Below, in pieces: positions 14,321-37,924 of a stretch of 64,000 nucleotides of DNA. The notes under the pieces were generated by a model, which searched no databases, was not told where the DNA came from, and worked only from the letters and a program-made list of their open reading frames with translations. The DNA lies in the NCBI RefSeq assembly GCF_963921235.1, contig NC_086107.1, positions 98,148,001 through 98,212,000 on the forward strand, in the 5' to 3' direction. The position numbers and the translations under genes were made by a program. Source of the stretch: Mobula hypostoma (Eukaryota). How positions within the stretch are numbered: the first letter of the stretch is position 1; the number at the start of each line of letters is the position of its first letter.

Positions 14321-14478
14321 TTGAGCCAACTCCGAGCCACCACCTTGCCAACTCCCCGTGAATCCCGTGTGAACTAACAAGATCAATATGCCATTTAGGA
14401 CCTTGTCAAATCATCACTATCCAGTCAGAGAATCAGCCTTCAACCATCACTTTCTGCGGCATGTTAGCGTAGCGTGCC

Positions 14479-15117
14479 ATGGGCGATCATGGTGACCATG
14501 ATTTGAGTACTGTTGGGGGGGACAGCTTACCCGGGGGAAGCGACAGTGGTCATGCCTCCGGCACAGAGTCCGGCCCTGTAGCTCAGAAGGGTAGGGCAAG
14601 GAAGAGGAGGGCAGTTGTGATAGGGGACTCAATAGTAAGGGGGTCAGATAGGCGATTCTGTGGACGCAGTCCAGAGACCCGGATGGTAGTTTGCCTCCCT
14701 GGTGCCAGGGTCCGGGATATTTCTGATCGTGTCCAAGATATCCTGAAGTGGGAGGGTGAGGAGCCAGAGGTCGTGGTACATATAGGTACCAATGACATAG
14801 GTAGGAAAAGGGATGAGGTCCTGAAAGGAGAATATAGGGAGCTAGGAAGGGAGTTGAGAAAAAGGACCGCAAAGGTAGCAATCTCGGGATTACTGCCTGT
14901 GCCACGCGACAGTGAGAGTAGGAATACGATGAGGTGGAGGATAAATGCGTGGCTGAGGGATTGGAGCAGGGGGCAGGGATTCAAGTTTTTGGATCATTGG
15001 GACCTCTTTTGGCGCAGGCGTGACCTGTACAAAAAGGACGGGTTACACTTGAATCCTAGGGGGACCAATATCCTGGCAGGGAGATTAGCAGGGGCTACTG
15101 AGGTGACTTTAAACTAG
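14479..15117 (+). CDS. CR1 ORF1 SGNH/GDSL esterase domain (N-terminus supplied by flanking sequence)
   Basis: VVIGDSIVRG (block I), HIGTNDIG (block III) and DGLHLN (block V). Uninterrupted. Confidence 0.85.
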   Translation: MGDHGDHDLSTVGGDSLPGGSDSGHASGTESGPVAQKGRARKRRAVVIGDSIVRGSDRRFCGRSPETRMVVCLPGARVRDISDRVQDILKWEGEEPEVVVHIGTNDIGRKRDEVLKGEYRELGRELRKRTAKVAISGLLPVPRDSESRNTMRWRINAWLRDWSRGQGFKFLDHWDLFWRRRDLYKKDGLHLNPRGTNILAGRLAGATEVTLN

Positions 15118-18100
15118 AATGGTTGGGGGGGTGGGAATCAAATTAAGGAGGCTAGGCGTGAGGAGGTTAGTTCACAACAGGGGGATGGGAACCAGTGCCG
15201 AGAGACAGAGGGGTGTAAAGTGAGGGTAGAAGCAAAAAGTACTAAGGAGAAAAGTAAAAGTGGCAGGCCGACAAATCCAGGGCAAGCATTAAAAAGGGCC
15301 ACTTTTCAACATAATCGTCTAAGGGCTAAGAGAGTTGTAAAAGAGCGCCTGAAGGCTTTGTGTGTCAATGCAAGGAGCATTCGTAATAAGGTGGATGAAT
15401 TGAAAGTGCAGATTGTTATTAATGATTATGATATAGTTGGGATCACAGAGACATGGCTCCAGGGTGACCAGGGATGGGAGCTCAACGTTCAGGGATATTC
15501 AATATTCAGGAGGGATAGACATGAAGGAAGGGGAGGTGGGGTGGCGTTGCTGGTTAAAGAAGAGATTAACGCAATAGAAAGGAAGGACATAAGCCGGGAA
15601 GATGTGGAATCGATATGGGTAGAGCTGCGTAACATTAAGGGGCAGAAGACGCTGGTGGGAGTTGTGTACAGGCCACCTAACAGTAGTAGTGAGGTCGGAG
15701 ATGGTATTAAACAGGAAATTAGAAATGAGTGCAATAAAGGAACAGCAGTTATAATGGGTGACTTCAATCTACATGTAGATTGGGTGAACCAAATTGGTAA
15801 AGGTGCTGAGGAAGAGGATTTCTTGGAATGTATGCGGGATGGTTTTTTGAACCAACATGTCAAGGAACCGACTAGAGAGCAGGCTATTCTGGACTGGGTT
15901 TTGAGCAATGAGGAAGGGTTAATTAGCGATCTTGTCGTGAGAGGCCCTTTGGGTAAGAGTGACCATAATATGGTGGAATTCTTCATTAAGATGGAGAGTG
16001 ACATAGTTAATTCAGAAACAAAGGTTCTGAACTTAAAGAGGGGTAACTTTGAAGGTATGAGACGTGAATTAGCTAAGATAGACTGGCAAATGACACTTAA
16101 AGGATTGACGGTGGATATGCAATGGCAAGCATTTAAAGGTTGCATGGATGAGCTACAACAAATGTTTATCCCAGTTTGGCAAAAGAATAAATCAAGGAAG
16201 GTAGTGCACCCGTGGCTGACAAGAGAAATTAGGGATAGTATCAATTCCAAAGAAGAAGCATACAAATTAGCCAGAGAAAGTAGCTCACCTGAGGACTGGG
16301 TGAAATTCAGAGTTCAGCAGAGGAGGACAAAGGGCTTAATTAGGAAGGGGAAAAAAGATTATGAGAGAAAACTGGCAGGGAACATAAAAACGGACTGTAA
16401 AAGCTTTTATAGATATGTAAAAAGGAAAAGACTGGTAAAGACAAATGTAGGTCCCCTGCAGACAGAAACAGGTGAATTGATTATGGGGAGCAAGGACATG
16501 GCAGACCAATTGAATAATTACTTTGGTTCTGTCTTCACTAAGGAGGACATAAATAATCTTCCAGAAATAGTAGGGGACAGAGGGTCCAGTGAGATGGAGG
16601 AACTGAGCGAAATACATGTTAGTAGGGAAGTGATGTTAGGTAAATTGAAGGGATTGAAGGCAGATAAATCCCCAGGACCAGATGGTCTGCATCCTAGAGT
16701 GCTTAAGGAAGTAGCCCAAGAAATAGTGGATGCATTAGTGATAATTTTTCAAAACTCGTTAGATTCTGGACTAGTTCCTGAGGATTGGAGGGTGGCTAAT
16801 GTAACTCCACTTTTTAAAAAAGGAAGGAGAGAGAAACCGGGGAATTATAGACTGGTTAGCCTAACGTCGGTGGTGGGGAAACTGCTGGAGTCAGTTATCA
16901 AGGATGTGATAACAGCACATTTGGAAAGCGGTGAAATGATCGGACAAAGTCAGCATGGATTTGTGAAAGGAAAATCATGTCTGACGAATCTCATAGAATT
17001 TTTTGAGGATGTAACGAGTAGAGTGGATAGGGGAGAACCAGTGGATGTGGTATATTTGGATTTTCAAAAGGCTTTTGACAAGGTCCCACACAGGAGATTA
17101 GTGTGCAAACTTAAAGCACACAGTATTGGGGGTAAGGTATTGGTGTGGGTGGAGAATTGGTTAGCAGACAGGAAGCAAAGAGTGGGAATAAACGGGACCT
17201 TTTCAGAATGGCAGGCAGTGACTAGTGGGGTACCGCAAGGCTCAGTGCTGGGACCCCAGTTGTTTACAATATATATTAATGACTTGGATGGGGGAATTAA
17301 ATGCAGCATCTCCAAGTCTGCGGATGACATGAAGCTGGGTGGCAGTGTTAGCTGTGAGGAGGATGCTAAGAGGATGCAGGGTGACTTGGATAGGTTGGGT
17401 GAGTGGGAAAATTCATGGCAGATGCAATTTAATGTGGATAAATGTGAAGTTATCCACTTTGGTGGCAAAAATAGGAAAACAGATTATTATCTGAATGGTG
17501 GCCGATTAGGAAAATGGGAGGTGCAACGAGACCTGGGTGTCATTATACACCAGTCATTGAAAGTGGGCATGCAGTTACAGCAGACGGTGAAAAAGGCGAA
17601 TGGTATGCTGGCATTTATAGCGAGAGGATTCGAGTACAGGAGCAGGGAGGTACTACTGCAGTTGTACAAGGCCTTGGTGAGACCACATCTGGAGTATTGT
17701 GTGCAGTTTTGGTCCCCTAATCTGAGGAAAGACATCCTTGCCATAGAGGGAGTACAAAGAAGGTTCACCAGATTGATTCCTGGGATGGCAGGACTTTCAT
17801 TTGAAGAAAGACTGGATGAACTGGGCTTGTACTCGTTGGAATTTAGAAGATTGAGGGGGGATCTGATTGAAACGTATAAGATCCTAAAGGGATTGGACAG
17901 GCTAGATGCAGGAAGATTGTTCCCAATGTTGGGGAAGTCCAGAACGAGGGGCCACAGTTTGAGGATAGAGGGGAAGCCTTTTAGGACCGAGATTAGGAAA
18001 AACTTCTTCACACAGAGAGTGGTGAATCTGTGGAATTCTCTGCCACAGGAAACAGTTGAGGCCAGTTCATTGGCTATATTTAAGAGGGAGTTAGATATGG

Positions 18101-18252
18101 CCCTTGTGGCTACAGGGGTCAGGGGGTATGGAGGGAAGGCTGGGGCGGGGTTCTGAGTTGGATGATCAGCCATGATCATAATAAATGGCAGTGCAGGCTC
18201 GAAGGGCCGAATGACCTACTCCTGCACCTATTTTCTATGTTTCTATGTTTCT
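14504..18252 (+). mobile_element. Young CR1 LINE, 5'-truncated within ORF1, TSD ATGATT
   Basis: ORF1 esterase and ORF2, CR1 3' UTR and (TTCTATGT)n tail. ATGATT occurs at 14498-14503 and 18253-18258. Removing the element restores an antisense RTE-tailed SINE (GACCATGATTGTTCTTGGCAAA). Confidence 0.95.
15220..18156 (+). CDS. CR1 ORF2: APE endonuclease + reverse transcriptase (978 codons, no stops)
   Basis: NARSI, GITETWL, MGDFN and SDHN (APE). [24 protein letters not shown] and SADD (RT). The track start is a GTG; the true start is uncertain. Confidence 0.92.
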   Translation: MRVEAKSTKEKSKSGRPTNPGQALKRATFQHNRLRAKRVVKERLKALCVNARSIRNKVDELKVQIVINDYDIVGITETWLQGDQGWELNVQGYSIFRRDRHEGRGGGVALLVKEEINAIERKDISREDVESIWVELRNIKGQKTLVGVVYRPPNSSSEVGDGIKQEIRNECNKGTAVIMGDFNLHVDWVNQIGKGAEEEDFLECMRDGFLNQHVKEPTREQAILDWVLSNEEGLISDLVVRGPLGKSDHNMVEFFIKMESDIVNSETKVLNLKRGNFEGMRRELAKIDWQMTLKGLTVDMQWQAFKGCMDELQQMFIPVWQKNKSRKVVHPWLTREIRDSINSKEEAYKLARESSSPEDWVKFRVQQRRTKGLIRKGKKDYERKLAGNIKTDCKSFYRYVKRKRLVKTNVGPLQTETGELIMGSKDMADQLNNYFGSVFTKEDINNLPEIVGDRGSSEMEELSEIHVSREVMLGKLKGLKADKSPGPDGLHPRVLKEVAQEIVDALVIIFQNSLDSGLVPEDWRVANVTPLFKKGRREKPGNYRLVSLTSVVGKLLESVIKDVITAHLESGEMIGQSQHGFVKGKSCLTNLIEFFEDVTSRVDRGEPVDVVYLDFQKAFDKVPHRRLVCKLKAHSIGGKVLVWVENWLADRKQRVGINGTFSEWQAVTSGVPQGSVLGPQLFTIYINDLDGGIKCSISKSADDMKLGGSVSCEEDAKRMQGDLDRLGEWENSWQMQFNVDKCEVIHFGGKNRKTDYYLNGGRLGKWEVQRDLGVIIHQSLKVGMQLQQTVKKANGMLAFIARGFEYRSREVLLQLYKALVRPHLEYCVQFWSPNLRKDILAIEGVQRRFTRLIPGMAGLSFEERLDELGLYSLEFRRLRGDLIETYKILKGLDRLDAGRLFPMLGKSRTRGHSLRIEGKPFRTEIRKNFFTQRVVNLWNSLPQETVEASSLAIFKRELDMALVATGVRGYGGKAGAGF

Positions 18253-30750: not shown

Positions 30751-31788
30751 AGGAATAACGAGGGCTTGCCAGACAGGCGGAGTGGGTAAACTGCGCACAG
30801 ACTGGAAGGTGTCAGCTAGTGAGGGGAGAGTGATTTGGGGTCAGTTTCTTGGAACAGGGTGTCTGGGGAGGGGCAGCCAGGGAGCAGGAGTACAAGTGCA
30901 TTGGAGTGGGGTGCGGTCGTGAGCTCAGAGTGGGGGGGTGTCCCAGACGGCTGAACGAAATTTACATCCTCCGAAGACTGTGATGGGTCGGTCTAACTAC
31001 TGCACAGAGTCTTGTCATCTTCAGACGTTTTCTGATGACTCTGCCATAGTTGGATGCATCAGCAAGGGAGATGACGCTGAGTACAGGGCTACGGTAGGAA
31101 ACTTTGTCACATGGTGTGAGCAGAATTATCTGCAGCTTAATGTGAAAAAGACTAAGGAGCTGGTGGTAGACCTGAGGAGAGCTAAGGTACCGGTGACCCC
31201 TGTTTCCATCCAAGGGGTCAGTGTGGACATGGTAGAGGATTACAAATACCTGGGGATACGAATTGACAATAAACTGGACTGGTCAAAGAACACTGAGGCT
31301 GTCTACAAGAAGGGTCAGAGCCGCCTCTATTTCCTGAAGAGACTGAGGTCCTTTAACAACTGCCGGATGATGCTGTGGATGTTCTACGAGTCTGTGGTGG
31401 CCAGTGCTATCATGTTTGCTGTTGTGTGCTGGGGCAGCAGGCTGAGGGTAGCAGACACCAACAGAATCAACAAACTCATTCGTAAGGCCAGTGATGTTGT
31501 AGGGATGGAACTGGACTCTCTGACGGTGGTGTCTGAAAAGAGGATGCTGTCCAAGTTGCATGCCATCTTGGTCAATGTCTCCCATCCACTACATAATGTA
31601 CTGGTTGGACACAGGAGTATATTCAGCCAGAGACTCATTCCACCGAGATGCAACACTGAGCGTCATAGGAAGTGGAAAGTGGCCAGTGAGTGAGTGGGCC
31701 AGTGAAGGAGTGGAGCTTTGAGGCTTTGACTCAAGAGGCTTCGCCGAGAAGAGGCGGAGGACAAGCTAGCTCGCAGTTAGTTTTTACA

Positions 31789-32729
31789 ATGTCTCCTGAG
31801 ACGGTGATGTGCCTCTCATGTGAGAGGTGGCAGTCTTGGGGGAACGCCCCTCTCCCGCAGAGTCACATCTCCCAGAAGTGCATACGGCTGGGCGATCTGG
31901 AAGACCGTGTAAGGAATCTGGAGCAGCAGCTCGATGACCTTCAACTCATAAGGGAGAATGAGGCAGTCATAGATGCAAGCTACAGGGAGGTAGTCACACC
32001 TAGGCTATCGGAAGCAGGTCATTGGGTGACAGTCAGAGGGGGGAAAGCAAAGGTGAGCAGACAGGTAGTGCAGAGCACCCCAGTGGCCATTTCCCTGAAT
32101 AATAAGTTTACCATCCTGGATACTGTTGGCGGGGACGACCGACCAGGGGTGATCCACGATGGCAGGGCCTCCGGCACTGAGTCTGACCCTGTGGTGCAGA
32201 AGGGTGGGACGGAGAAGAGGAGAGCTGTCGTCATTGGAGACTCTATAGTCAGGGGAGCAGACAGGAGATTTTGTGGACGTGAGAAGAGACCCGCATGGTT
32301 TGTTGCCTCCCGGGTGCCAGGGTCCGGGATCTCTCTGACCAGGTGCACGACATCCTGGTACAAGAGGGAAAGTAACCAGAAGTCATGAAACATCTTGGTA
32401 CCAACGACATAGGCAGGAAGAGGGATGAGGTCCTGAAGAGTGAGTTTCAGGAACTAGGCAGAAGGCTGAAGAACAGGACCTCAAGGGTGGCGTTCTCAGG
32501 ATCGCTGCCAGTGCTACGTGACAGTGATGGTAAGAATTGGAGGAGATGGCAGTTGAATGTGTGGCTGAGCAGTTGGTGCAGGGAGCAGGGTTTTAGATTT
32601 TTAGATCATTGGGATCTCTTCTGGGGAAAGTGGGACCTGTACAGATTGGATGGGTTGCACCTGAACTCGAGGGGAAGCAATATCCCTGGAGGTAGGTTTG
32701 CTAGCATGGTTCGGGAGGGTTTAAACTAA
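31789..32729 (+). pseudogene. CR1 ORF1 (Cys motif, coiled coil, SGNH esterase), frameshifted
   Basis: CLSC...HISQKC, LEDRVRNLEQQLDDL, VVIGDSIVRG, HLGTNDIG and DGLHLN, split over frames. Confidence 0.85.
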
Positions 32730-35456
32730 TTTGCGAGGGGGATGGGACCCAGAGCGATAGAGCAGTGAAAGAAGTGCATGGGGTAAAGCCAGATCTAACA
32801 TATAGAGAGGCTTTGAGGAAAGAGAAGCAGAATAAACGGTGTAAAGACAGTAAGGTAGAAGGGCTGAAGTGTGTGTACCTCAATGCAAGAAGCATCAGGA
32901 ACAAAGGTGATGAACTGAGAGCTTGGATACATACGTGGAATTATGATGTAGTGGCCATTACAGAGACTTGGCTGGCACCAGGGCAGGAATGGATACTGGG
33001 GGTATTCTATAGGCCTCCTGGTAGCAGCAGAGATACAGAGGAGCAGATTGGGAGGCAGATTTTGGAAAGGTGCAAAAATAACAGGGTTGTTATCATGGGT
33101 GACTTTAACTTCCCTAGTATTGATTGACACCTGATTAGTTCCAAGGGTTTAGATGGGGCAGAGTTTAAGTGTGTCCAGGATGGATTCCTGTCACAGTATG
33201 TGGACAGGCCGACCAGAGGGAATGCCGTACTAGATCTAGTACTAGGTAATGAACCGGGTCAGGTCACAGATCTCTCAGTGGGTGAGCATCTGGGGGACAG
33301 TGACCACCGCTCCCTGGCCTTTAGCATTAACATGGAAAAGGATAGAATCAGAGAGGACAGGAAAATTTTTAATTGGGGAAGAGCAAATTATGAGGCTATA
33401 AGGCTAGAACTTGCGGGTGTGAATTGGGATGATGTTTTTGCAGGGAAATGTACTATGGACATGTGGTCGATGTTCAGAGATCTCTTGCAGGATGTTAGGG
33501 ATAAATTTGTTCCGTTGAGGAAGATAAAGAATGGTAGGGTGAAGGAACCATGGGTGACAAGTGAGGTGGAAAATCTAGTCAGGTGGAAGAAGGCAGCATA
33601 CATGAGGTTTAGGAAGCAAGGATCAGATGGATCTATTAAGGAATATAGGGAAGCAAGAAGGGAGCTTAAGAAGGGGCTGAGAAGAGCAAGAAGGGGGCAT
33701 GAGAAGGCCTTGGCGAGTAGGGTAAAGGAAAACCCCAAGGCATTCTTCAATTATGTGAAGAAAAAAAGGATGACAGGAGTGAAGGTAGGACCGATTAGAG
33801 ATAAAGGTGGGAAGATGTGCCTGGAGGCTGTGGAAGTGAGCGAGGTCCTCAATGAATACTTCTGTTCGGTATTCACCAATGAGAGGGAACTTGATGATGG
33901 TGAGGACAATATGAGTGAGGTTGATGTTCTGGAGCATGTTGATATTAAGGGAGAGGAGGTGTTGGAGTTGTTAAAATACATTAGGACGGATAAGTCCCCG
34001 GGGCATGACTGAATATTCCCCAGGCTGCTCCACGAGGCGAACAAAGAGATTGCTGAGCCTCTGGCTAGGATCTTTATGTCCTCGTTGTCCACGGGAATGG
34101 TACCGGAGGATTGGAGGGAGGCGAATGTTGTCCCCTTGTTCAAAAAAGGTAGTAGGGATAGTCCGGGTAATTATAGATCAGTGAGCCTTACGTCTGTGGT
34201 GGGAAAGCTGTTGGAGAAGATTCTTAGAGATAGGATCTCTGGGCATTTAGAGAATCATGGTCTGATCAGGGACAGTCAGCATGGCTTTGTAAAGGGCAGA
34301 TCGTGTCTAACAAGCTTGATAGAGTTCTTTGAGGAGGTGACCAGGCATATAGATAAGGGTAGTGCAGTGGATGTGATCCATATGGATTTTAGTAAGGCAT
34401 TTGACAAGGTTCCCCATGGTAGGCTTATTCAGAAAGTCAGAAGGCATGGGATCCAGGGAAGTTTGGCCAGTTGGATTCAGAATTGGCTTGCCTGCAGAAG
34501 GCAGAGGGTGGTGGTGGAGGGAGTACATTCAGACTGGAGGATTGTGACTAGTGGTGTCCCACAAGGATCTGTTCTGGGACCTCTACTTTTTGTGATTTTT
34601 ATTAACGACCTGGATGTGGGGGTAGAAGGGTGGGTTGGCAAGTTTGCAGACGACACAAAGGTTGGTGGTGTTGTAGATAGTGTAGAGGATTGTCAAAGAT
34701 TGCAGAGAGACATTGATAGGATGCAGAAGTGGGCTGAGAAGTGGCAGATGGAGTTCAGATGGTACACTTTGGAAGGACAAACTCCAAGGCAGAGTACAAA
34801 GTAAATGGCAGGATACTTGGTAGTGTGGAGGAGCAGAGGGATCTCGGGGTACATGTCCACAGATCCCAGAAAATTGCCTCACAGGTGGATAGGGTAGTTA
34901 AGAAAGCTTATTGGGAGTTAGCTTTCATAAGTCGAGGGATAGAGTTTAAGAGTCGCGATGTAATGATGCAGCTCTATAAAACTCTGGTTAGGCCACACTT
35001 GGAGTACTGTGTCCAGTTCTGGTCGCCTCACTATAGGGAGGATGTGGAAGCATTGGAAAGGGTACAGAGGAGATTTACCAGAATGCTGCCTGGTTTAGAG
35101 AGTATGCATTATGATCAGAGATTAAGGGAGCTAGGGCTTTACTCTTTGGAGAGAAGGAGGATGAGAGGAGACATGATAGAGGTGTACAAGATAATAAGAG
35201 GAATAGATAGGTGGATAGCCAGCGCCTCTTCCCCAGGGCACCACTGCTCAATACAAGAGGACATGGCTTTAAGGTAAGGGGTGGGAAGTTCAAGGGGGAT
35301 ATTAGAGGAAGGTTTTTTACTCAGAGAGTGGTTGGTGCGTGGAATGCACTGCCTGAGTCAGTGGTGGAGGCAGATACACTAGTGAAGTTTAAGAGACTAC
35401 TAGACAGGTATATGGAGGAATTTAAGGTGGGGGCTTATATGGGAGGCGGGGTTTGA
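32720..35456 (+). pseudogene. CR1 ORF2 (APE + RT), disrupted
   Basis: [33 protein letters not shown] and KFADD. Stops at ~33125 and ~34010, an internal deletion at ~32995 and several frameshifts. Confidence 0.9.
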
Positions 35457-36320: not shown

Positions 36321-36519
36321 GGACCACCCTGACCCAGGCTTTACTGAGGGGGGTGGGTGGGAGCAGTCTTCTGTCGGGAGCAAGTTCCTGGTGGGAAATT
36401 TGAGGACTGCAGGTCCCTGCTGGCTGAGAAGCTTCTCTCTCAGTGACATTCACAGCAAACCCAGCAGGCAGTGTGGCTGAGAATGAGTGACGTGCTGCCG
36501 CCTGTACTCAGAGCCGCTC

Positions 36520-37655
36520 CTGTATCCAGCACAGTGAGCAGGGCTGCTGGGACACAGAGTGGTTCCCAGCACAGTGAGCAGGGCTGCTGGGACACAGAGT
36601 GGTTCCCAGCCCAGTGAGAGGGGCTGCTGGGATACAGAGTGGTTCCCAGCACAGTGAGCAGGGCTGCTGGGATACAGAGCTGTTCCCAGCATAGTGAGCA
36701 GGGCTGCTGGGAAACAGAGCGGTTCCCAGCCCAGTGAGAGGGGCTGCTGGGATACAGAGCGGTTCCCAGCACAGAGCCATTTCCCAGCATAGTGAGCAGG
36801 GCTTCTGGGTTACAGAGCGGTTCCCAGCACAGTGAGGGGGGCTGCTGGGATACAGAGTGGTTCCCAGTCCAGTGAGAGGGGCTGCTGGGATACAGAGTGG
36901 TTCTCAGCACAGAGCTGTTCCCTACACAGTGAGCAGGGCTGCTGGGACACAGAGCAGTTCCCAGCTCAGCGAGAGAGTCTGCTGGGATACAGAATGGTTC
37001 CCAGCACAGTGAGCAGGGTTGCTGGGATATAGAGCAGTTCCCAGCTCAGTGAGAGAGGCTGCTGGGATACAGAGCTGTTCCCAGCTCAGTGAGGGGGGCT
37101 GCTGGGATACAGAGTTGTTCCCAGCACAGTGAGAGGGGCTGCTGGAATATAGAGTGATTCCCAGCACAGTGAGCAGGGCTGCTGGGATACAGAGCTGTTT
37201 CCAGTACAGTGAGCGGGGCTGCTGGGACACAGAGAAGTTCCCAACACGGTGAGCGGGGCTGCTGGGACACAGCGGTTCCCAGCACAGTGAGGGGGGCTGC
37301 TGGGATACAGAGCTGTTCCCAGCACAGTGAGGGGGGCTGCTGGGATACAGAGTTGTTCCCAGCACAGTGAGAGGGGCTGCTGGAATATAGAGTGATTCCC
37401 AGCACAGTGAGCAGGGCTGCTGGGATACAGAGCTGTTCCCAGCACAGTGAGGGGGGCTGCTGGGATACAGAGTTGTTCCCAGCACAGTGAGCAGGGCTGC
37501 TGGGATACAGAGCTGTTTCCAGTACAGTGAGCGGGGCTGCTGGAATATAGAGTGATTCCCAGTACAGTGAGCGGGGCTGCTGGGACACAGAGAAGTTCCC
37601 AACACGGTGAGCGGGGCTGCTGGGACACAGAGCGGTTCCCAGCGCAGTGAGCCGG
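36520..37655. repeat. 40-bp minisatellite with internal hairpin
   Basis: Unit CAGTGAGCAGGGCTGCTGGGATACAGAGCTGTTCCCAGCA, about 27 units. Confidence 0.95.
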
Positions 37656-37924
37656 GGAGGGGATGGGGGAGTTGTGGGGTGACAGGGAGTTCATGGCAGT
37701 GATGAGTCAGGGGTGAGGCCGCTGAGGAATGTTGTGTTTTCACGCTGCCTCTGCCTCTGCACCTGGACAGACAGCACTCAGACAAGATGACATCATGCAG
37801 CACTGATCTCACCAGCAGAGCTGAGACTGCCGGCCAATGATTAACTCGGGAGCACATTCCAATGCAGTAATCTCTCCTGTCCCCGCATCACCGACTGCAA
37901 ACAACCTCAGGAACACACTGAAAT

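Follow-up and report, generated by a model that had tools for sequence, protein, structure and literature searches.

UUUAAAC and GGGAAAC heptamers occur in the frameshifting of retroviruses and long terminal repeat (LTR) elements, and the domesticated gene PEG10 uses G_GGA_AAC. The coronavirus site between open reading frames (ORFs) 1a and 1b combines U_UUA_AAC with a three-stemmed pseudoknot, located 5-6 nucleotides (nt) downstream and needed for the signal. Plant luteoviruses and dianthoviruses possess 'shifty stop' sites, in which the zero-frame stop codon directly follows the heptamer, and the protein-stimulated frameshifting of arteriviruses and cardioviruses involves a linear motif ~10-14 nt downstream. 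Here, we analysed a 64,000-nt stretch of the Mobula hypostoma genome (the window; NCBI RefSeq assembly GCF_963921235.1, contig NC_086107.1, positions 98,148,001 to 98,212,000 of the forward strand) that carries CR1-type long interspersed nuclear elements (LINEs). Judged from ray and bird-type sequences, the junction between ORF1 and ORF2 of these elements is probably a programmed -1 ribosomal frameshift site that would give an ORF1-ORF2 fusion protein.

The CR1 junction shares with the gag-pol (pro-pol) junctions of retroviruses and LTR elements a heptamer that ends the upstream structural ORF, a polymerase ORF that lies in the -1 frame without a start of its own, and the expectation of a low-ratio fusion product. 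It differs from them in that CR1 is a non-LTR LINE, its ORF1 protein is of the esterase type and not a Gag, the stop codon abuts the heptamer, and a G-rich linear block stands in place of a pseudoknot or hairpin. The heptamer is identical to that of coronavirus ORF1a/1b and a polymerase likewise follows downstream but, unlike in coronaviruses, no comparable conserved pseudoknot and no Rfam match accompany the CR1 junctions. The shifty-stop and protein-stimulated sites resemble the CR1 junction in the stop that abuts the heptamer and in a conserved unstructured motif ~10 nt further on, whereas those sites belong to RNA viruses and work with different motifs, C-rich or stem-loop, and with protein partners that are known.

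Among LINEs, a -1 frameshift is stated as required for ORF2 of the Dictyostelium elements TRE5-A and TRE3-A in the accessible part of one article (PMC5911963). Like the CR1 copies, these are LINEs with an apurinic-type endonuclease (APE), two ORFs and an ORF2 in the -1 frame, but they belong to a different clade and host kingdom. For human L1 and silkworm SART1, the available sections of another source describe ORF2 synthesis through unconventional termination and reinitiation, and an unconventional restart, established for these two elements, is the only mode of LINE ORF2 translation that the reviews describe there (PMC2881922). L1 and SART1 also have a bicistronic LINE RNA, an ORF2 dependent on ORF1-translating ribosomes and an ORF2 protein expected to be scarce; they make ORF2 as a protein of its own and depend neither on a slippery site nor on a fixed frame, whereas in CR1 the heptamer, its register and the -1 frame are conserved. 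In the accessible portion of a 2016 review of frameshifting by Atkins et al., non-LTR elements figure only as Drosophila telomeric elements and mammalian LINEs, and CR1 is unmentioned (PMC5009743). The available text of a 2026 survey of the CR1 group is likewise free of the terms 'overlap', 'stop codon', 'start codon' and 'frameshift' (PMC13343379). The kind of system is known, namely -1 frameshifting in LINEs such as the Dictyostelium TRE elements; a report or statement of it for CR1 was not found in the literature searched, with the original CR1 descriptions outside its reach.

The ORF1/ORF2 junction of the window copy

The junction lies in a decayed CR1-type LINE at ~31690-35456 (plus strand), hereafter family 1; a second copy at 14473-18156 (plus strand) represents family 2, and window coordinates are used throughout. 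The family 1 copy has the following features:

31690..32729, plus strand: ORF1 remnant, split between two frames (31690-32388 and 32376-32729); its C-terminal half is the esterase
32702..32704, plus strand: TAG of the -1 frame, which bounds the ORF1/ORF2 overlap on its 5′ side, 5 codons ahead of the heptamer
32720..32726, plus strand: slippery heptamer T_TTA_AAC in the X_XXY_YYZ register
32727..32729, plus strand: ORF1 stop codon TAA, adjoining the heptamer on its 3′ side
32737..32747, plus strand: G-rich block GGGGGATGGGA, 10 nt past the heptamer, a candidate frameshift stimulator
32705..35456, plus strand: decayed ORF2 (endonuclease and reverse transcriptase), at its start in the -1 frame relative to ORF1
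32705-33127, 33128-34012, 34013-34804, 34738-35277 and 35211-35456, plus strand: pieces of ORF2 in the ORF list

The 3′ end of ORF1 reads GCT AGC ATG GTT CGG GAG GGT TTA AAC TAA (32700-32760 inspected), and the zero-frame codons GGT|TTA|AAC at 32718-32726 place the heptamer in the X_XXY_YYZ register directly before the stop, as the sequence-only reading of this DNA had noticed. ORF1 and the -1 frame overlap by only 25 nt, the last seven of which are the heptamer. From 32705, the -1 frame reads HGSGGFKLICEGDGTQSDRAVKE...GLKCVYLNARSI, and its continuation into ORF2, also described in that reading, is borne out by Pfam, which placed an endonuclease domain (PF03372, Exo_endo_phos) on 32705-33127 (E 9.1e-8), followed by a reverse transcriptase domain (RVT_1, PF00078). 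On the ORF1 side, a GDSL-like lipase domain (PF13472) covers the last 117 codons (32376-32726, E 3.3e-10). The observation that ORF2 of this copy has no in-frame ATG before the IMGDFN motif is likewise correct, the first methionine of the -1 frame being residue 125 in this copy, whose endonuclease has an internal deletion. TTTAAAC matches the window nine times against 7.8 expected, so that the heptamer alone is not enriched; what is unusual about it is its position, register and conservation, not its abundance.

The assignment to CR1 follows from sequence features, namely the esterase ORF1 and an ORF2 start that resembles those of bird-type copies, together with a published survey of CR1-group elements, whose accessible part gives the esterase ORF1 as the sole type in vertebrate CR1 and L2 (PMC13343379). 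Pfam searches returned the architecture of the CR1 group, with an SGNH/GDSL esterase in ORF1 and an APE followed by a reverse transcriptase in ORF2, and the homologues of ORF1 found by protein search carry PF13472 and PF00657.

Directly 5′ of the family 1 copy, at 30923-31693 (plus strand), another CR1-type ORF2 is represented by its 3′ part, with the C-terminal reverse transcriptase region in 256 open codons; two insertions thus abut at this place.

Conservation among CR1 families of the ray genome

A DNA search of the window's assembly (3.48 Gb, 200 contigs) with the family 1 junction gave more than 2000 candidates, of which 30 loci, 96-100% identical, were taken for examination. The junction string GGTTTAAACTAA was present and the heptamer kept in all 30 of these copies. 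The -1 frame is uninterrupted from the heptamer through to the endonuclease in 29 of them, the remaining copy having an extra C, and the ORF1/ORF2 overlap extends 5 codons before the heptamer in 29/30. No methionine occurs before residue 82 of the -1 frame in the 30 copies, and in most sister copies the first one is found at residue 185, within the endonuclease.

The second window copy belongs to a divergent family, which shares 65% amino-acid identity with family 1 over the esterase half and 45-57% over the ORF2 protein. Its features are as follows:

14473..15117, plus strand: end of ORF1 (last 214 codons), terminating in ACT TTA AAC TAG (15106-15117)
15108..15114, plus strand: slippery heptamer T_TTA_AAC, the -1 frame opening 2 codons upstream, behind a TGA
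15125..15131, plus strand: run of seven G residues (G7), one more than in 23/30 copies of the family
15118..18156, plus strand: ORF2, uninterrupted over 1012 codons

The claim that the heptamer at 15108 is kept in a divergent lineage stood as far as the string ACT TTA AAC TAG is concerned, but the -1 frame of this particular copy is shut by the extra G: with the G7 run, ORF2 follows the TAG in frame 0, and the -1 frame ends after 12 codons at a TAA (15144-15146). Among 30 family 2 copies from the genome, the run was G6 in 23, G7 in five, G8 in one and interrupted in one. The heptamer was kept in 29 of these copies, and the endonuclease lay in the -1 frame in 21, 20 of which were free of stops between the heptamer and the endonuclease.

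In the window copy of family 2 (14473-18156, plus strand), ORF1 and ORF2 share one frame and are parted by a single TAG because of one extra G in the homopolymer. The G7 state may represent a small lineage, recurrent slippage or an assembly error. Three of the G7 copies (L033, L034 and L053) and the G8 copy L040 lie close to one another, and no shared diagnostic variants marking the G7 copies as a subfamily were found, the distances being inflated by flanking DNA.

Two more families were traced from truncated window copies. An old family, whose copies are ~80% alike and which was traced from a 5′-truncated copy, gave three junctions reading GGT ATA AAC TAA, GAT TTA AAC TAA and GGT CTA AAC TAA, which is decay around the same site. 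In another family, the junction was found in one of three stretches and reads GGT TTA AAC TAG, with the -1 frame open into ORF2. A wider sample was obtained with two distant ORF1 proteins as queries, which yielded 257 places in the ray genome; 20 of these, with an alignment reaching the C-terminus of the query and with differing ORF1 lengths, were examined. TTTAAAC followed by an immediate stop codon was found in 20/20 (TAA 9, TAG 10, TGA 1). The codon before TTA was GGT, ACT, GCT, GAT or TGT, so that the residue varies while the third base is T in all. The -1 frame opens 2-8 codons upstream of the heptamer in 19/20 of these ends; in L086, the open frame reaches the 5′ limit of the stretch (at least 13 codons). 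It stays open across all 74 sampled codons in 12/20 and is broken in the other eight by scattered stops, none of which is common to copies. An in-frame ATG ahead of the endonuclease was present in one of the 20 (L081). The heptamer is lost in the old decayed copies L061, L063 and L044. In all families ORF2 lies in the -1 frame, in agreement with the openness of that frame proposed from the window copy alone.

ORF1 ends in birds, sharks and metagenome contigs

Proteins related to the ray ORF1 were found in many sharks and rays, the best named match being a devil ray protein with 96% identity. A C-terminal Leu-Asn is present in 38 of the 79 matches listed, the named ones among which are shark or ray proteins, i.e. 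in 38 of the 48 that end near the last esterase motif, and the residues preceding it are variable. Leu-Asn also ends 98/120 bird ORF1 proteins. In a set of 150 diverse members of the ORF1 esterase family, the ending is Leu-Asn (LN) in 53 and Gly-Asn (GN) in eight.

More distant junctions were seen at the DNA level through an ORF1-alignment scan of metagenome contigs, which returned 29 loci, 23-53% identical to the query, 13 of which were examined. Five of them carry a junction of the form (TCT or GCT) TTA AAC TAG; their ORF1 is 30-35% identical to that of the ray and 81-98% identical to proteins labelled as galliform and other birds, and these junctions are therefore referred to as bird type. 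ORF2 lies in the -1 frame and is open into the endonuclease in three of the five (L088, L091 and L093); after the site, ~30 codons are open in L097 and almost none in L089. One decayed copy retains the bird-type junction string. In one other lineage, the junction reads CAG GGA AAC TAG, so that the heptamer is G_GGA_AAC; the exchange alters the encoded residue, the heptamer stays slippery and ORF2 is again in the -1 frame. The protein relatives of this lineage end in GN (8) or Lys-Asn (KN; 6), consistent with GGA AAC and AAA AAC, the DNA having been seen for one only. The rest of the 13 loci were cut off by the contig end, had decayed too far or, in a single instance, appeared to be bacterial.

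Among loci L087-L115, many contigs of one data set with the prefix Ga0181612 and of two ENA assemblies carry ORF1 of bird-type or other animal CR1, which indicates host DNA in those metagenome assemblies. A protein labelled as a Pseudomonas aeruginosa SGNH hydrolase (P0018) is a CR1 ORF1, 63% identical to that of the ray and ending in REGLN, and is probably animal DNA within a bacterial assembly. Records labelled as a ribosomal protein S24 isoform (P0012; sawfish) and as transmembrane protein 204 isoforms (P0042/P0043; manta ray) are CR1 ORF1 as well and are probably gene models that have absorbed it.

Constraint on the nucleotide sequence

In these CR1 elements, TTA makes up 13-14% of leucine codons and T occupies 23-26% of third positions, while AAC accounts for 28% of asparagine codons in ray copies and 57% in bird-type copies. 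Despite this codon background, NNT-TTA-AAC is unchanging across the ray families and the bird-type junctions. The heptamer is conserved at synonymous positions across diverged relatives, without synonymous variation among the window-family copies (30/30 and 29/30), the other ORF1 ends (20/20) and the bird-type junctions (5/5), as the sequence-only reading would have it. A trace of the same constraint is visible in the proteins, where only 2 of 185 distinct ORF1 proteins have, before LN, a residue that no NNU codon encodes (E, Q, K, M or W), against 17-19% expected (binomial p ~1e-13, relatedness being ignored).

When ray and bird-type junctions were compared in nucleotides with the heptamer as anchor, identity was 1.00 in the heptamer, 0.78 in the stop codon and 0.80 from +17 to +29, and 0.23-0.53 elsewhere. 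The second conserved island is the G-rich block, which reads GGGGGATGGGA in rays and GGGGGAAGGGGA in birds and begins 9-10 nt past the heptamer, its glycine codons being GGG. As the codon choice and these alignments indicate, the constraint on the junction acts on nucleotides and not on the protein.

The same positions were inspected in four public runs, using contigs at least 80% alike to the window junction; the type of run is unrecorded, so that these contigs have no bearing on expression. No variant with a share of at least 10% and no indel was present at 32714-32733, and no variant of at least 10% share at 32736-32754, which covers the G block, with flanks variable at many places. Contigs of diverged families align only over ~32709-32760.

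Proposed mechanism and alternative explanations

The in-silico tests favour a predicted fusion of esterase, APE and reverse transcriptase by -1 frameshifting, as had been suggested for the window copy. We infer the slip, its efficiency and the stimulator roles of the adjacent stop and the G block as follows. Most ribosomes would translate ORF1 to give the coiled-coil/esterase protein, decode UUA AAC and terminate at the adjoining stop. A minority would slip one base back, as tRNA-Leu exchanges UUA for UUU and tRNA-Asn exchanges AAC for AAA; alternatively, a slip by the P-site tRNA alone, made with the stop codon waiting in the A site, would lead to the same outcome. The slipped ribosomes would next read CUA or CUG and continue in the endonuclease/reverse-transcriptase frame, and the product would be an ORF1-ORF2 fusion at a low, fixed stoichiometry comparable to that of retroviral Gag-Pol. 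The shift would have almost no other place to occur, because the -1 frame opens so few codons before the heptamer. The position of the stop is fixed while its identity varies, which suggests that the stop belongs to the signal.

Several observations weigh against this reading. A conserved stable structure 5-9 nt downstream, as expected at a canonical -1 site, was not found: a consensus fold of nine ray junctions gave no conserved hairpin or pseudoknot 3′ of the site (energy ~0; no dedicated pseudoknot program was used), and single-sequence folding of the 90 nt downstream gave z-scores of -0.3 to +1.4 in 14 of 16 junctions with no common structure, the exceptions being the window copy of family 1 (-3.16) and L076 (-1.43). 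The bird-type consensus fold contains only a weak hairpin ~27 nt downstream without covariation, G-quadruplex-aware folding predicted a two-tetrad G-quadruplex in only 5/16 junctions, and Rfam scans found no frameshift element in the junction or in five related loci. The window copy had already been noted to have no clear pseudoknot but a G-rich tract, and the wider comparison agrees, with no conserved fold and a G-tract that is itself conserved from ray to bird. Furthermore, ORF2 is in frame 0 in 5/30 family 2 copies, including the window copy with its intact 1012-codon ORF2, and in 3/6 bird-type junctions (L088, L093 and L087) the ORF1 stop is followed at 2 nt by an ATG of the ORF2 frame (TAG NN ATG). 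The expected absence of an ORF2 start codon before the endonuclease consequently holds for the ray families, with the exception of L081, and fails in half of the bird-type junctions; some bird CR1 subfamilies may have two routes to ORF2. As for the sampling, the way in which the 20 ORF1 ends were selected favours an LN ending, though not a choice of codons, and the families share ancestry, so that the counts of families and copies are not independent.

A distant pairing partner of the G block was also sought and rejected, the best values of -17.8 and -18.5 kcal/mol being within chance for ~1000 windows. In family 2, the best complement of the G block (15124-15141) is located in the 3′ untranslated region at 18213-18235 (plus strand; -18.5 kcal/mol, ~3.5 standard deviations below the mean); it is not significant after multiple testing over the 1074 windows and recalls the long-range pairing at some plant-virus frameshift sites.

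The main rival to programmed frameshifting is restart after termination, in which a ribosome ending ORF1 would resume nearby at an AUG or non-AUG codon, and the conserved sequence would either serve the restart or encode a needed Leu-Asn end. Such a restart requires neither a slippery heptamer in register nor a T before TTA nor TTA among the leucine codons, and no fixed -1 frame, yet every family has its ORF2 in the -1 frame. Equally hard to reconcile with a restart is the exchange for G_GGA_AAC, which changes the residue and preserves slipperiness, and the ray families have no ATG to offer (family 1, and the other ends save 1/20). We hold restart to be unlikely, albeit with several facts in its favour: in every family ORF1 stops just where the ORF2 frame starts, the ATG of the bird-type junctions described above is suitably placed, and the frame-0 (G7) copy of the window still has an intact ORF2. 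In bicistronic non-LTR RNAs, moreover, ORF2 is described as using unconventional initiation dependent on ORF1 translation, according to the accessible part of one source (PMC2881922). Weaker still is translation of ORF2 independently of ORF1, through internal entry or a non-AUG start on a full-length or shorter RNA, with the junction kept for some other RNA-level role. The conservation of the G block in nucleotides without an obvious fold would allow for another function, but the register of the heptamer is left unexplained, and the stop 2-8 codons before the heptamer in 19/20 ORF1 ends confines any start to a few codons. The contigs of the public runs contain no joints, which shows only that no alternative joined form assembled, and we consider independent translation quite improbable.

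That the heptamer reflects phylogenetic inertia or chance in dead elements appears the least credible of these explanations, indeed scarcely so. It is true that TTTAAAC is not enriched in the window and that both window copies are damaged or atypical; against this, ray and bird-type junctions have the same heptamer (100% identity) amid flanks of 23-53% identity, and chance is contradicted by the 20/20 ORF1 ends, the bird-type junctions and the NNU signature (2/185). Since decayed copies (L061, L063 and L044) lose the heptamer, its presence in all family lineages reflects selection, acting on active source copies. Transcriptional slippage was rejected as a candidate, as the homopolymer runs in the heptamer are only three letters long, the G run is located 3′ of the stop and the public-run contigs contain no indels.

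If programmed frameshifting is indeed used, the elements may share an ancient cassette common to rays and birds, consisting of the heptamer, the abutting stop and a linear G-tract 10 nt on, and independent of a pseudoknot. The G-tract might act through a bound host factor, through the ORF1 protein itself, which would make the ORF1:ORF2 ratio self-regulating, or through a small G-quadruplex, and UUUAAAC would be exchangeable for GGGAAAC or AAAAAAC; we put forward this extended model tentatively, as a doubtful though conceivable one. Frameshifting at the junction would further mean that the CR1 enzyme is made as a Gag-Pol-like ORF1-ORF2 fusion, with a fixed protein ratio and an enzyme tied, on its own RNA, to the ORF1 particle. 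The recognition of intact CR1 copies would change accordingly, as screens that require an ATG-initiated ORF2 would misjudge them. The junction would also constitute a natural eukaryotic recoding site conserved across vertebrates, in which the sole conserved downstream element is a G-tract and not a pseudoknot.

A possible tandem repeat in the window

Outside the CR1 copies, all three phases of the minus strand at 36440-37900 have long open frames that overlap and carry a repeated peptide-like unit (...PSSPAHCAGN.SVSQQP.SLCWE.LC.PAA.LTVLGT...). The pattern suggests a tandem repeat whose period is a multiple of three.

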